13,245 nt of DNA from a virus (Duplodnaviria > Heunggongvirae > Uroviricota > Caudoviricetes). The stretch lies in the IMG/VR virus record IMGVR_UViG_2690316278_000014, one strand, 5' to 3'. The translations under genes and the position numbers were made by a program. Within the stretch, counting starts at the first letter, position 1. Each line of letters begins with the position of its first letter. Below the pieces are notes generated by a model. It worked only from the letters and a program-made list of their open reading frames with translations. It was not told the DNA's origin and searched no databases. Below, piece after piece: positions 1 through 9,600 of this stretch.

Positions 1-293
1 TTATCGATCTATTAAACATTAAGTTAGCCTCATTAAAAAGCGAATTGCAATCACTTACCTTTTGGAAAGTATCGCCAAAAGATGAAGCTATATTCAATAA
101 TTATTTCTTCAGTAATCAAATTGCTTTAGGAACATTGAGGGAAGCGATAAGTTTTGATATAAATGACATTCATGATAGATATCATTACAATGTCAGCTAT
201 GGAAAGTTATTAGTAGATACATTTGATAGTTTAATAGAAGCACATGCAACCTTGAAAAAGGACATGAATAACTTATTCGTTTTCTCTAATTAG
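1..293 (+). CDS. 3' end of an unidentified ORF entering from the left window edge; about 97 C-terminal codons visible; product unknown
   Basis: The frame of the 45..293 ORF stays open back to nt 3 (IDLLNIKLASLKSELQSLTFWKV...), so the TTG at 45 is probably internal. Stop TAG at 291-293. No motif recognised. Confidence 0.3.
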   Translation, partial: IDLLNIKLASLKSELQSLTFWKVSPKDEAIFNNYFFSNQIALGTLREAISFDINDIHDRYHYNVSYGKLLVDTFDSLIEAHATLKKDMNNLFVFSN

Positions 294-471
294 AGTCCAC
301 AACTCCCAATAGACGGTGGGGTATCCTCACCGCTATAACTAACATCTCAACATTAAGATTTATAAGGTCTTCATTAAAGTACTCCCCCTTTCGTACCTCC
401 TATATAAATAGAGGAAGTAATATATATCACCATCGTAGGTGTTAAATTCCATTCTTATCATCTCGTAAACC

Positions 472-511
472 CTATAGTGGGTTAGTAGTTCTAACCCTCA
501 ATCTATAGTGG
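472..511. repeat. Direct repeat CTATAGTGG (472-480 and 503-511) flanking an inverted repeat GGGTTAG-tagtt-CTAACCC (479-497)
   Basis: Read directly in the convergent intergenic region between the + ORF ending at 293 and the - gene ending at 550. No downstream T-tract on either strand, so not a canonical intrinsic terminator. Confidence 0.5.
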
Positions 512-549
512 CATCTAACATTTACCTTACATTCCAAAAAATATTATTC

Positions 550-5278: not shown

Positions 5279-5458
5279 TGATTTGCTGTATTTTGCACGG
5301 AAATCTTAAACCCATCGGGTGCGTAGTTATATCCAAAATTCATAATCCCTCTTTTATTGCTCTATCTACAATGCCGTTAGATTTCGACATCGTAGATATA
5401 TTGTTCAAATATTAACTCGCATAATTCATTCTACAAGACCATAAATTCTCATTAGCTT

Positions 5459-7455
5459 TTAATCCATCCAATCAATCATATCTTCATTAACAATGATCTC
5501 AAATTTTTCACGCTTGAGAAGATTAAGATACAATCCAACATCATCAAGTATTTTGGTACGGCTAATGGCAAGCGACCACATATCAGTACCAGATGTAACG
5601 GAGGCAATGAAAACGGTTTTGCCCTCTTCATTGACAGTGTAGACACGCTCGCCGCTTGTTTCAGAGATTACGATCTCATGTAGTACTTCACCCCCGCCCC
5701 GCTTGTTATCAATCACAAGCGTATGGGATAGGACATCATTGAAGTATTCCAACTGTACAAATATACGCTTTTCAAAAACCCAGTACTTAACAGATTTCAG
5801 TACTAATCTTACTTCTTTCCGTAACTTTGCACGTAACTCGACATTCAATGGATCAAGTACTTTATTAATATCGAAATCAAATACAGGGATTTCTTTGATG
5901 TTCTTTGAATTTAATATCTCAGATTCTATTTCTTCAATTCTATCCTGTACCTCAGTTAAACCCGTCATTAATGGTAACGAGGCTTTCTTACCTGCTGCCT
6001 TACGTTCATTAATTTTAACCTGATAGGTTTCTGCCTCTTTCTGTAAAGTACTTAACTCTTCTCGCAATGATGCAAGCAATGAATCTGAATCCGACTTACC
6101 TTCCATCATCAATTTATTGAAGTCTACATTTTTGACAAGCTGTAGAATGTTCTTTTCAATTCTCATGTACTGGATAGATTTAGCATCGCAGATCTTCTTT
6201 TCTTCCCTGTTACGACAAATAACATACTTAGTTCGTACATGATTATAGTGAATTGCAATATTGCCCCCACAGTGACCGCATTTCAGCATCTTCGGGAAGA
6301 GGTTAGTAATGTAATCATCCTGAGCAATGGTAATGTCCTTACGGATACGATTAGCTATACCATTCCGCGATAACTTCTCATTAGCCCGTTCAAAGGTGAG
6401 GTTATCGATAATCTTCATGGTAACTACTTTCTTATCACGTAGTACCCTCAGTACATTGACGGTACTCCACCCTTTCGGCAAGCGTTTTACAATCGCCCCT
6501 GAACCAAGGCCTGTCTCATAAAGTTTAAAAATCTNNNNNNNNNNNNNNNNNNNNNNNNNNNNNNNNNAACTTCTGGTTCAAGTAATAGATCCTCTGCTGG
6601 CTTCTTCTTCTCCAACATAACGCGATCCATCATTCTATTCGCTGTCAGGAACAACTCTTCGTCGATGATTTTCGGGTAAACGTTTGGTACTACNNNNNNN
6701 NNNNNNNNNNNNNNNNNNNNNNNNNACTACCTCACCGTTGTAACGTTCATGCTCGCCCAACAAACGGCGATCACGTATCAGCCTGGACACAGTGACCATC
6801 TGCCACTTTCTACCGATACGTTTAACAATCTCGCCAGTACTCAACCCTTCCCTATACCACATGAAACATTTAACAATCAGTTCTGCCTGTTCCGGTATAA
6901 CTTGGTACTTGTTATCTACATTTCTCAACCAATTAGGCATACGGTTGGAGATTACTTCCCCGTTCTGTACTGCACGTGTGATTTTGTTATCCCATGCCAA
7001 TTTTGCACGTACCGATTTCATCAATGACTCATTGTGTGAACGGTGCTGTATCAGTTCCATGTGAATTTTTGACATAGGATCATCAACCCGTAACACAAGG
7101 TTTGTAGAGATATCGTGAATCTCAATCCCACTATTCACGATGTACTGGATAGTACTTTCGGCCCAGCTTGATCGACGCGATAGACGATCCAGCGATAAAA
7201 CCACAAGTGCGTCACCTACGCCGTACTTGCGGTTGCCCACATCTTGCAAAAATATCCCAAGCTGAGACTCTGGAGAGATATTGGCATTTTTGAATGCGGA
7301 AAGCCCCGCATCAGTAATGAAAATCCTTTCGTCAGTGAACTTATCAGCATTTTTATCTAAGTATGCAGTCANNNNNNNNNNNNNNNNNNNNNNNNNNNNN
7401 NNNNNNNNNNNNNNNNNNNNNNNNNNNNNNNNNNNNNNNNNNNNNNNNNNNNNNN
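5459..7455 (-). CDS. Large serine recombinase (resolvase-type catalytic domain, recombinase domain, zinc-ribbon, coiled-coil); N-terminus including the catalytic Ser is inside the mask 7372-7616, so the start is approximate
   Basis: Visible catalytic-domain sequence DERIFITDAGLSAF...GDALVVLSLDRLSRR aligns with the resolvase family; recombinase-domain motif WYREGLSTGEIVKRIGRKWQMVTVSRLIRDRRLLGEHERYNGEV then PKIIDEELF; zinc-ribbon KCGHCGGNIAIHYNHVRTKYVICRNREEKKIC; coiled-coil-like region SLLASLREELSTLQKEAETYQVKINERK; TAA at 5459-5461. The track ORFs 6635..7663 and 5459..6481 are pieces of this one gene: their TTG starts are artefacts and the TAG at 6635-6637 is in a non-coding frame for that segment. 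Confidence 0.85.
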
Positions 7456-7573
7456 NNNNNNNNNNNNNNNNNNNNNNNNNNNNNNNNNNNNNNNNNNNNN
7501 NNNNNNNNNNNNNNNNNNNNNNNNNNNNNNNNNNNNNNNNNNNNNNNNNNNNNNNNNNNNNNNNNNNNNNNNN

Positions 7574-9600
7574 NNNNNNNNNNNNNNNNNNNNNNNNNNN
7601 NNNNNNNNNNNNNNNNAGGACGAAGAGTTCACACTGCAGGAGTTTCTTACCACTTGTCGGCAAGATCGCAGTGCTTATGCCAACGCGGCTGAGCGGCTAT
7701 TGNNNNNNNNNNNNNNNNNNNNNNNNNNNNNNNNNNNNNNNNNNNNNNNNNNNNNNNNNNNNNNNNNNNNNNNNNNNNNNNNNNNNNNNNNNNNNNNNNN
7801 NNNNNNNNNNNNNNNNNNNNNNNNNNNNNNNNNNNNNNNNNNNNNNNNNNNNNNNNNNNNNNNNNNNNNNNNNNNNNNNNNNNNNNNNNNNNNNNNNNNN
7901 NNNNNNNNNNNNNNNNNNNNNNNNNNNNNNNNNNNNNNNNNNNNNNNNNNNNNNNNNNNNNNNNNNNNNNNNNNNNNNNNNNNNNNNNNNNNNNNNNNNN
8001 NNNNNNNNNNNNNNNNNNNNNNNNNNNNNNNNNNNNNNNNNNNNNNNNNNNNNNNNNNNNNNNNNNNNNNNNNNNNNNNNNNNNNNNNAGCCCGGTCAAC
8101 GATCATCCGTTCTGTCTTTTCAATCCGCAGGAAGATGCGCAGATTCTGGAAAAAGAGTATGGCATTCCTCGCCGCTATCTCGGCACCATCATGTCGCCGT
8201 GGGCGGCAAAACGCCTGCATGAATTTGGTGGCGATATCACTAAGTTCCGGGTAGTGAAGGTCTGGCCGTCAATTCTGCAACAAATTGCTATCGCCAAAAC
8301 AGAACCCGGTGATGAGAACAACCAGGACATCTCCGCGCTGGTAGGGAAAGTCGATATTCGTAAACTCGAACACTACGCGCAGAATGACCCGGACGCCTAC
8401 GGCTATTCCGGTGCGCTGTGCCGCGCCAATCAGGGGATCATGGAATTTGTCGAGATGTTTAAAGCACCGATTAAAGTGCTGCATCCGCTGTTAACCGCTA
8501 CTCAGGAAGGTAACTACAACGGGACGGAAGGTATCTCCGCCCTGCCGTTCAACGGGATTATTCTCGCCCACTCGAACGAATCCGAATGGGTCACTTTCCG
8601 TAATAACAAAAACAACGAAGCCTTCCTCGACCGTGTTTACATCGTGAAGGTGCCGTATTGCTTACGCATTTCCGAAGAGATCAAAATCTACGAGAAATTG
8701 CTTAATCACAGTGAATTGACTCACGCCCCATGCGCCCCTGGCACGCTGGAAACACTGTCACGTTTTTCCATTCTTTCGCGCCTGAAAGAGCCAGAAAACT
8801 CCAGCATTTATTCAAAGATGCGGGTTTATGATGGCGAAAGTCTGAAAGACACCGATCCCAAAGCCAAGTCGTATCAGGAATATCGTGACTACGCCGGTGT
8901 CGATGAAGGGATGAAAGGTCTGTCGACGCGTTTTGCGTTTAAGATCCTCTCCCGCGTGTTCAACTTCGATCATGTAGAAGTGGCGGCAAACCCGGTCCAT
9001 CTGTTCTACGTCCTAGAACAGCAGATCGAGCGCGAGCAGTTCCCGCAAGAGCAGGCAGAACGCTATCTGGAGTTCCTGAAAGGTTATCTGATCCCGAAAT
9101 ATGCCGAGTTTATCGGCAAAGAGATCCAGACGGCCTACCTTGAATCCTATTCCGAATATGGGCAAAACATTTTCGACCGTTATGTTACCTACGCGGATTT
9201 CTGGATTCAGGATCAGGAGTATCGCGATCCGGATACCGGGCAGCTGTTTGACCGCGAGTCTCTTAACGCCGAGCTGGAGAAAATCGAGAAACCGGCGGGG
9301 ATCAGTAATCCAAAAGATTTCCGCAACGAGATTGTTAACTTCGTACTGCGCGCCAGAGCGAATAACAGCGGACGCAATCCGAACTGGACCAGCTATGAAA
9401 AACTGCGCACGGTTATCGAGAAGAAAATGTTCTCCAATACCGAGGAGCTGTTGCCGGTTATCTCGTTTAACGCCAAAACGTCAACCGACGAGCAGAAGAA
9501 ACACGACGACTTTGTCGACCGTATGATGGAAAAAGGCTACACCCGTAAACAGGTGCGTTTACTGTGCGAATGGTATTTGCGCGTACGTAAATCGTCTTAA
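7574..9600 (+). CDS. yeaG: PrkA-family serine protein kinase YeaG; start is masked, estimated from the visible N-terminal fragment at 7619-7702
   Basis: Visible 7619-7702 translates DEEFTLQEFLTTCRQDRSAYANAAERLL, matching residues 16-43 of YeaG as I recall it. 8089-9600 translates SPVNDHPFCLFNPQEDAQILEKEYGIPRRYLGTIMSPWAAKRLHEFGGD ... CEWYLRVRKSS with TAA at 9598-9600. The two visible parts are in different frames across N-run 7703-8088, which is also about 92 nt longer than the K-12 gene length (recalled, not aligned) would allow. Confidence 0.9.

Follow-up and report, generated by a model that had tools for sequence, protein, structure and literature searches.

The stretch of viral DNA analysed here, the window, is 13,245 nt long (IMG/VR virus record IMGVR_UViG_2690316278_000014). 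At its left, positions 1-7616 hold a block of AT-rich genes that ends with the gene of a large serine recombinase (LSR); to the right of it stand the host core genes yeaG, yeaH and cdgI, which match E. coli at 99%. The block is the integrase-proximal (left) arm of a tailed prophage of ~36 kb that extends beyond the window on the left. The visible window segments agree with Shigella sonnei 53G (HE616528.1) at 100% or with a single mismatch. Ten unmasked loci were obtained by exact-protein look-up with the HNH_3 protein of the block, and several of them match the window segments at or near 100%. The locus of S. sonnei 53G, L004, serves below as the unmasked reference.

Eleven N-runs interrupt the window (among them 5194-5217, 6535-6567, 6694-6725 and 7372-7616), and they do not have the length of the DNA that they replace. 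Comparison with reference DNA shows 294 nt behind one run of 386 N, 207 nt behind the 245 N at 7372-7616 and 7 nt behind a run of 33 N; frames and distances over the masks are accordingly unreliable. The N-runs 5194-5217 and 6694-6725 conceal nothing, since their flanks are duplicated by 9 and 5 nt. The GC content of the non-N segments is 34-37% across 1-6534, 43-44% in the 5' part of the recombinase gene and 48-50% in yeaG and yeaH. Measured on the S. sonnei copy without masks, the island portion amounts to 7,116 nt with 36.8% GC (LSR gene 40.9%, cargo 35.6%), against 50.0% for yeaG and 49.1% for yeaH, in agreement with the AT-rich island described in an earlier note that was made from the letters alone. 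Low GC by itself does not mark foreign DNA in this window, because the core gene cdgI at its right end (11645-12724) has only 38.3% GC.

The list of open reading frames (ORFs) gives a run of minus-strand genes from 550 to ~7400 and, right of it, the plus-strand block yeaG-yeaH-cdgI. The minus-strand genes are eight in number, encoding p157, a 247-aa HNH protein, p153, an HNH_3 protein, p100, p61, p124 and the LSR. For these eight, the statement of the earlier note that every convincing gene is on the minus strand holds; it fails for 1-293, the 3' end of a 222-aa gene and the sole island gene on the plus strand within the window.

The visible pieces of the LSR (5459..7456, minus strand, upper end approximate) match Pfam Resolvase (2.6e-7), Recombinase (PF07508) and Zn_ribbon_recom (PF13408, 6.7e-10). 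The protein also matches the integrase family PHROG 95 (4.8e-50). The full ORF (L004 6399-8333) encodes 644 aa. Its unmasked N-terminus reads MLRPICYERVSSIQQ and SLDRLSRR follows later; the protein has a resolvase catalytic domain with the serine nucleophile, the conserved arginines and the YERVSS and DRLSRR motifs. The Recombinase domain and a zinc beta-ribbon lie C-terminal to the catalytic domain in a protein of more than 400 aa, which is the make-up of an LSR. The ORF is intact, with 644 aa, in all ten unmasked loci. The frame shifts seen in the window are a masking artefact, because the N-runs are of untrue length and two of them lie between duplicated flanks; a recombinase pseudogene was considered and rejected. 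The protein is remote from what has been described: recombinases of cultured phages reach at most 28% identity, and this over the N-terminal 40% only. No integrase in the PDB was matched at E<=0.001, and no relative was found among the GTDB species-representative genomes. A sigma-70-like site (TTGGCA, 16 nt, GATAGT) is present at L004 6276-6303, under the mask 7372-7616 and in the first codons of yeaG, thus on the host side of the junction, and points at the LSR gene. If this site is real, transcription of the LSR in the prophage state could begin in host DNA.

The host gene yeaG (PrkA-family protein kinase; 7574..9600, plus strand, start masked and lower end approximate) is 99-100% identical to yeaG of E. 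coli and S. sonnei. Its divergent neighbour in E. coli is mipA, as had been stated before, and here the LSR gene takes up the divergent position, the two ATG codons being 79 bp apart in S. sonnei 53G. Both lie under the N-run 7372-7616, which hides the junction, as the earlier note had proposed. We unmasked this run with L004 and the empty E. coli site. It covers the 85-nt 5' end of the LSR gene, 64 nt of phage end, an 8-bp core (AAAGGACG) and the first 43 nt of yeaG; the 64-nt phage end consists of the right arm of the phage attachment site attP, GGAACATTTGT, and the LSR leader.

At the yeaG end, the match to the empty E. coli site extends from the gene to -15 and breaks off at -15/-16. Given in the orientation of the LSR, this junction is ...ATGGTATGCCGTCCTTT followed directly by TGTATACTCTGGGAACATTTGTGAATC.... 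Both ends of the insertion are present in two IMG/VR contigs, whose far ends adjoin a 91-93% match to the E. coli mipA-yeaG spacer. The mipA-side junction, read directly in these two relatives, is ...TTTTACAAATGTTCCTATTGATGATCATATGCGTCCTTT followed by CGTTTTTTAGCACAGG..., and the form of the far phage end expected beside mipA in S. sonnei is ...ATATGCGTCCTTT followed by CGTTTTTTAGCACAGG.... The mipA-side host sequence, used as a probe, had no match in IMG/VR. The host site attB of E. coli, in the same orientation, reads ...ATGGTATGCCGTCCTTTCGTTTTTTAGCACAGG.... The core common to attB and attP measures 8 bp, CGTCCTTT, and is the reverse complement of the yeaG Shine-Dalgarno sequence; on the yeaG strand it occupies -15 to -8. 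The rebuilt attP, about 57-60 bp long (TTTTACAAATGTTCCTATTGATGATCATATGCGTCCTTTTGTATACTCTGGGAACATTTGTGAATC), has perfect 11-bp inverted arms, ACAAATGTTCC and GGAACATTTGT, separated by a 35-nt spacer, and its midpoint is the G of the core. The core lies upstream of the LSR gene, with 64 nt between its end and the start codon. Such arm symmetry is typical of the attP of serine integrases, and its origin by chance is very unlikely. Taken together, the two relatives and the yeaG-side junction of S. sonnei display an attP with dyad symmetry and a distinct attB that shares only a short core with it, as is characteristic of LSR sites. The exact position of the crossover dinucleotide and the recombinase activity of the LSR are both predicted.

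The LSR-yeaG spacing of 79 bp recurs in a host with a yeaG of only 85% DNA identity to the E. coli gene; integration is therefore site-specific, and it is so across host species. The site-specific insertion next to yeaG suggested earlier thus stands, refined to a point inside the yeaG 5' untranslated region (UTR), on the Shine-Dalgarno sequence. Alignment to the mipA-yeaG region, which the earlier note had recommended for finding an insertion point and a target duplication, yields the point, at -15/-8, and no duplication. None is to be expected because the enzyme is a serine integrase, and only the 8-bp core is common to the junctions. Rfam and tRNA scans of the window returned nothing, so that an attachment site of the tRNA type is not indicated.

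Megablast with window positions 1-7371 matched nothing in 5,426 complete E. coli genomes, nor in collections of 50,697 phage records and 72,556 plasmids. A 200-nt probe over the insertion point is unbroken in 5,422 of the same 5,426 genomes, so that E. coli as a rule has the empty site. The earlier note had also considered that the same block might sit at this position across Escherichia with no empty-site alleles; this is not so, as none of the 5,426 genomes has the block. Loci L003 and L010 represent lysogens of E. coli, and L002 a metagenomic lysogen. In S. sonnei, many samples carry identical contigs and the block looks fixed. The published PHAST prophage table of S. sonnei 75/02 lists no region of such low GC.

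Beyond the left edge of the window, the unmasked loci continue with reverse 222-aa and 103-aa genes, small forward genes, and genes for TerS, TerL, a head-tail joining protein and the portal. TerL is of the lambda type, with matches to GpA_ATPase and GpA_nuclease, and the portal is a Phage_portal_2 protein. Within the S. sonnei loci, only TerS, a truncated TerL and the genes upstream are within reach. The complete element is seen in an intact relative, IMG/VR contig UViG_3300031088_000048 (36,453 nt), which holds a phage of ~36.2 kb with 37% GC and an LSR 89% identical to that of the window. This relative also encodes a protease-capsid fusion, a tail fibre, a major tail protein, a chaperone, a tape measure, a distal tail protein, a J-like fibre and an endolysin. 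Its terminase, portal, capsid, tail and lysis genes are contiguous and bounded by attL and attR, which defines a tailed prophage, and its 37% GC stands against the 50% of its hosts. The early region consists of small genes that belong to no recognisable replication or repressor family.

Related loci in IMG/VR number 65. Among the 50,697 phage records, no TerL exceeds 35% identity to that of the element. The earlier note had called the gene content phage- or satellite-like and unlike any element it could name; the phage-like part is borne out, and so is the lack of a match in the phage and plasmid collections, while the notion of a satellite or of a 7.4-kb island falls. What is new is a phage lineage that has no cultured representative and an attB at the yeaG ribosome-binding site; the kind of element, a temperate phage integrated by an LSR, is known. 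In the literature on yeaG with prophages or serine recombinases, or on S. sonnei with LSRs, we found no mention of the yeaG ribosome-binding site as an attB. One distant relative, L101, was found in E. coli ESBLEC_MG48 (NZ_CM132639.1 3124996-3166382); its TerL region has 76% nucleotide identity. No other such prophage occurs in the 5,426 complete E. coli genomes. L101 has a different LSR of 604 aa, inserted in ybhA, whose N-terminus has been removed. A GIY-YIG nuclease and an 'ATP-dependent nuclease' are among its cargo.

The S. sonnei copies have decayed. In the loci that reach it, terL is cut to 104-137 aa by an IS3-type insertion sequence (IS), and an IS21-family element is situated inside a 183-aa gene. 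In one S. sonnei assembly (L007 13704-19491), the arsRBC/dinQ region follows the IS21-family copy inside the prophage, an arrangement that indicates an IS-mediated rearrangement splitting the prophage. With terL truncated, further IS elements present and one strain rearranged, the S. sonnei element does not qualify as an inducible prophage; it is unable to make particles because IS elements break terL and other genes.

The stretch from the LSR gene to the 222-aa gene is a mosaic that varies across the family. Here the cargo comprises a predicted SRA-HNH nuclease, an HNH_3 homing endonuclease and five small genes of no assigned function; in relatives, a Type II methyl-directed enzyme (2.9e-63) or a protein of 1000 aa is encoded there. 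The nuclease, a protein of 247 aa, is encoded at 951..1982 on the minus strand (lower end approximate); its start codon is at 1982, and the HNH domain and stop codon fall inside an N-run. The C-terminal HNH domain, which has the conserved His and Cys residues of beta-beta-alpha-metal nucleases, can be aligned to EcoKMcrA and ScoMcrA. For the beta-rich N-terminal domain, the best fold matches are the SRA domains of ScoMcrA, SUVH5, UHRF1, PvuRts1I, AbaSI and LpnPI. The protein is thus predicted to be a modification-dependent SRA-HNH restriction nuclease of Type IV (McrA/TagI-like), and its restriction activity is likewise predicted.

The homing endonuclease of the HNH type recognised by the earlier note is well supported. 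This free-standing HNH_3/NUMOD4-type protein of 184 aa (3029..3583, minus strand) matches Pfam HNH_3 (9e-13) and NUMOD4 (3.7e-3) and the HNH endonuclease family PHROG 59 (2.1e-28). The exact 184-aa protein is indexed in 804 blocks of a public assembly collection.

Two observations in other genomes concern the cargo. The intact relative has, as its last large gene on the way to attR (L087 13247-14533), a variable cargo gene for a KAP-family P-loop NTPase; a 93%-identical copy occurs in a small LSR-less island at an msyB/MFS site of Enterobacter chuandaensis (L106). These copies suggest defence-like cargo that is swapped between hotspots. Kluyvera sp. CRP (CP082841.1 3088203-3108946, L103) has a 13.5-kb element beside msyB in which no phage structural genes were called. 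It contains a 627-aa LSR, a 60-aa homologue of p61, an HNH_3 protein, a Type II methyl-directed enzyme, an McrA-like protein (91% identical) and an IS. This element is a remnant or an independent island, and it is most simply read as a deletion remnant.

The 222-aa gene (3' end at 1..293, plus strand) is called in every unmasked copy. Its product is a predicted membrane protein with a hydrophobic N-terminus; relatives of 24-55% identity hold the same position in many family members, and the gene marks the inner limit of the variable cargo region. Next comes p157, a predicted membrane protein of 157 aa (550..1023, minus strand; upper end approximate, the 5' end lying under the N-run 951-1495; gene at L004 12428-12901), with relatives of 60-62% identity in two family members. 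A non-coding spacer of 463 nt between the cargo genes (1983..2445) contains no Rfam family, tRNA or significant promoter or terminator signal. The 153-aa p153 (2446..2907, minus strand) has 92%-identity copies in three other family members and no credible match in Pfam, PHROGs, PADLOC, NCBIfam or the PDB. Closer to the LSR are p100 (100 aa; 3638..3940, minus strand; L004 9644-9946), which overlaps p61 by 11 nt and matches no family, and p124 (124 aa; 4399..5103, minus strand; L004 8656-9030), with its start codon at 5103 and most of its length under the N-run 4399-5068. Searches with Pfam, PHROG and PADLOC-type profiles gave no credible family match for p124, p100, p157 or the 222-aa protein.

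The 61-aa p61 (3930..4115, minus strand) is conserved near the LSR across the family and is its best-conserved neighbour. Of 15 other family loci tested, 9 have a relative of 36-98% identity beside the LSR, and identical copies occur in L002 and L003; one homologue is labelled Shigella sonnei. We consider p61 a candidate regulator or recombination directionality factor. The ribbon-helix-helix (RHH) label that the earlier note had attached to it found no Pfam or PDB support, and only four close homologues were found. In a weak AlphaFold2 (AF2) monomer model (pLDDT 64), the N-terminus is unstructured and is followed by two helices (20-32 and 37-55). An RHH fold is plausible and compatible with this model, which is not diagnostic of it.

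To the right of the prophage, yeaH (window 10377-11059) lacks 48 nt, at about 10488-10497, that none of the S. sonnei and E. coli copies compared with it is missing. The deletion lies between two direct repeats of GCTGGAAGAG and removes 16 codons without a shift of frame. Either a polymorphism of the strain or the way in which the window was prepared would account for it.

The position of the insertion has a direct bearing on yeaGH. In E. coli, this operon has RpoS- and RpoN-dependent promoters, with activation by NtrC (PMC10954441, PMC4664914). The small RNA SdsR pairs at -31 to -22 of yeaG and represses yeaGH (PMC10954441). The regulatory elements of yeaGH control how E. coli survives nitrogen starvation and regrows afterwards (PMC4664914, PMC10954441). 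After insertion, the coding sequence and the ribosome-binding site of yeaG are intact, and 8 of the 10 positions of the SdsR site are replaced by phage bases in the lysogen. Both yeaGH promoters and the SdsR site are physically displaced by ~36 kb, beyond the other end of the prophage and beside mipA. We infer on good grounds that yeaGH regulation is altered in lysogens, because the promoters and the SdsR site are located past the prophage and the 64 nt of phage end contain no convincing replacement promoter; an effect on yeaGH expression would be expected to follow.

We therefore read window 1-7616 with high confidence as the integrase-proximal arm of a siphovirus-type temperate prophage of ~36 kb and 37% GC in S. 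sonnei, inserted by its LSR at the yeaG ribosome-binding site and since crippled by IS elements. We propose that the 644-aa LSR recombines the phage attP with a host attB that spans the ribosome-binding site and the start codon of yeaG (about -40 to +15), and that strand exchange takes place inside the common core CGTCCTTT. As a result, yeaG would keep its own Shine-Dalgarno and coding sequence with phage DNA directly upstream, and the RpoS- and RpoN/NtrC-dependent promoters and the SdsR site would end up past the far prophage end, next to mipA. IS elements now interrupt the prophage, and its LSR gene is still intact.

Several results weigh against this explanation. The mipA-side junction comes from two metagenomic relatives only (LSR 89% and 95% identical) and not from S. 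sonnei itself, where IS-mediated rearrangements may have parted the two ends. No reconstituted attP, as an excised or free form of the phage would have, was found in IMG/VR or JGI metagenomes: a 19-mer gave two unrelated chance matches in IMG/VR, the inverted-arm pattern gave one chance match, and a 34-mer gave none in the JGI metagenomes. No replication module was recognised in the intact relative, and no recombination directionality factor was identified. Promoter and terminator scans found promoter-like sites not to be enriched and none that would drive yeaG from the 64-nt phage end. In the literature on yeaG with prophages or serine recombinases, or on S. sonnei with LSRs, we found no mention of the yeaG ribosome-binding site as an attB.

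A different explanation would take the LSR and its cargo as a small autonomous integrative island, of the defence or the phage-satellite kind, that happens to lie beside phage structural genes or parasitises a helper phage. The related module of Kluyvera sp. CRP, of ~13.5 kb at the msyB site and with no terminase or portal called, would fit such an island, as would a cargo that is mosaic and mobile between family members. However, the Kluyvera element contains an IS, and deletion accounts for it most simply. Wherever a locus with this LSR is long enough to show it, TerS, TerL and portal adjoin the cargo on the same strand, and no second integrase or attachment-like break intervenes. Moreover, the two contigs each show one 36-kb insertion in one attB, with the LSR at one end and the tail/lysis genes at the other. 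Satellites such as phage-inducible chromosomal islands (PICI), P4-like elements or capsid-forming PICI (cf-PICI) measure ~7-20 kb, lack a full structural module and have replication and hijacking genes of their own. Profile searches of the element's proteins found no primase, replication or capsid-redirecting gene. A satellite was rejected, as the element is ~36 kb long with its full set of structural genes on the same strand, and we regard the autonomous island as a whole as very unlikely.

The prophage, or its surviving LSR, might also act as a reversible switch of yeaGH ('active lysogeny'), in which integration uncouples the promoters and SdsR from the operon and excision restores them. The crossover does separate the regulatory DNA precisely from the Shine-Dalgarno and start codon of yeaG, preserving the ribosome-binding site and coding sequence, and the LSR ORF has stayed intact in 10 of 10 loci despite the broken terL. 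Yet there is no sign of excision, neither as an attP form in the metagenomic collections searched nor as a directionality factor for the LSR. At least one S. sonnei strain has an IS-rearranged element, which would prevent precise excision there. Phages often integrate at the conserved 5' ends of genes without any regulatory role, and one relative merely truncated ybhA. None of our tests supports membership of the active-lysogeny class, and we judge a reversible switch most improbable as the explanation of the locus. As an extension of the IS-crippled prophage, one may speculate that it rewires or silences yeaGH in every S. sonnei strain carrying the remnant and that the intact LSR might occasionally restore the locus and would so serve as a phage regulatory switch of the Enterobacteriaceae; we consider this unlikely. 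That the block is conserved core DNA or an artefact of assembly or masking, as its apparent fixation in S. sonnei and the artefactual N-runs might suggest, is effectively refuted by its absence from complete E. coli genomes with an unbroken site, by a GC content 13 points below that of yeaG, by its occurrence in unrelated hosts and IMG/VR viral contigs, and by independent assemblies that equal the visible window sequence base for base.

The prophage reading has several consequences. The LSR/attP/attB triplet is previously undescribed, and its target, the conserved 5' UTR and start of yeaG, occurs in nearly all E. coli. Since LSRs with defined sites are useful for genome integration, the triplet is a candidate tool. 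The AT-rich family of ~36 kb, which lacks a cultured representative, scarcely occurs in complete E. coli genomes, and its integrase-proximal region gathers modification-dependent restriction enzymes and other defence-like cargo. The displacement of yeaGH from its promoters and small-RNA site predicts a phenotype specific to S. sonnei. If the rewiring is true, carriers would have an altered programme of starvation and growth recovery.

The element shares features with several known systems. With lambda-type phages, it has in common the head module (gpNu1/gpA, Phage_portal_2, protease-capsid fusion) and a siphovirus tail with J-like fibre, tape measure and chaperone; it differs from them in a TerL of at most 35% identity, a GC content of 37% and an early region of small genes. 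Of the SRA-HNH/McrA-type nucleases (TagI, ScoMcrA, EcoKMcrA), the 247-aa protein shares an alignable C-terminal HNH domain with ScoMcrA and EcoKMcrA, and its N-terminal domain may be SRA-like. Like McrA, which is carried on prophage e14, it is prophage-borne.

Serine-integrase prophages are known to act as switches at comK in Listeria and at spsM and sigK in Bacillus. The phi10403S-comK, SPbeta-spsM and skin-sigK systems and the present one have in common a serine-integrase prophage that parts a host stress or stationary-phase gene from what its expression needs. In contrast to those switches, the coding sequence is untouched here and only the promoter and 5' UTR are displaced, in a prophage that is ridden with IS elements and for which no excision was detected.

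The closest parallels concern the integrase and its site. The LSR has the same architecture, with a long C-terminal part, as those of phiC31, Bxb1, TP901-1, the Listeria phages A118 and phi10403S, Bacillus SPbeta, and Burkholderia JC1 and Bcep22. In LSR phages, attP lies just upstream of the integrase gene and has dyad symmetry, the shared core is short and the site is at or in a host gene; the same is seen here. The attP of JC1 is 41 bp upstream of its integrase (PMC9144972), and here the core ends 64 bp upstream. What sets the present LSR apart from those of known LSR phages is its very distant sequence and an attB that is the ribosome-binding site of yeaG.

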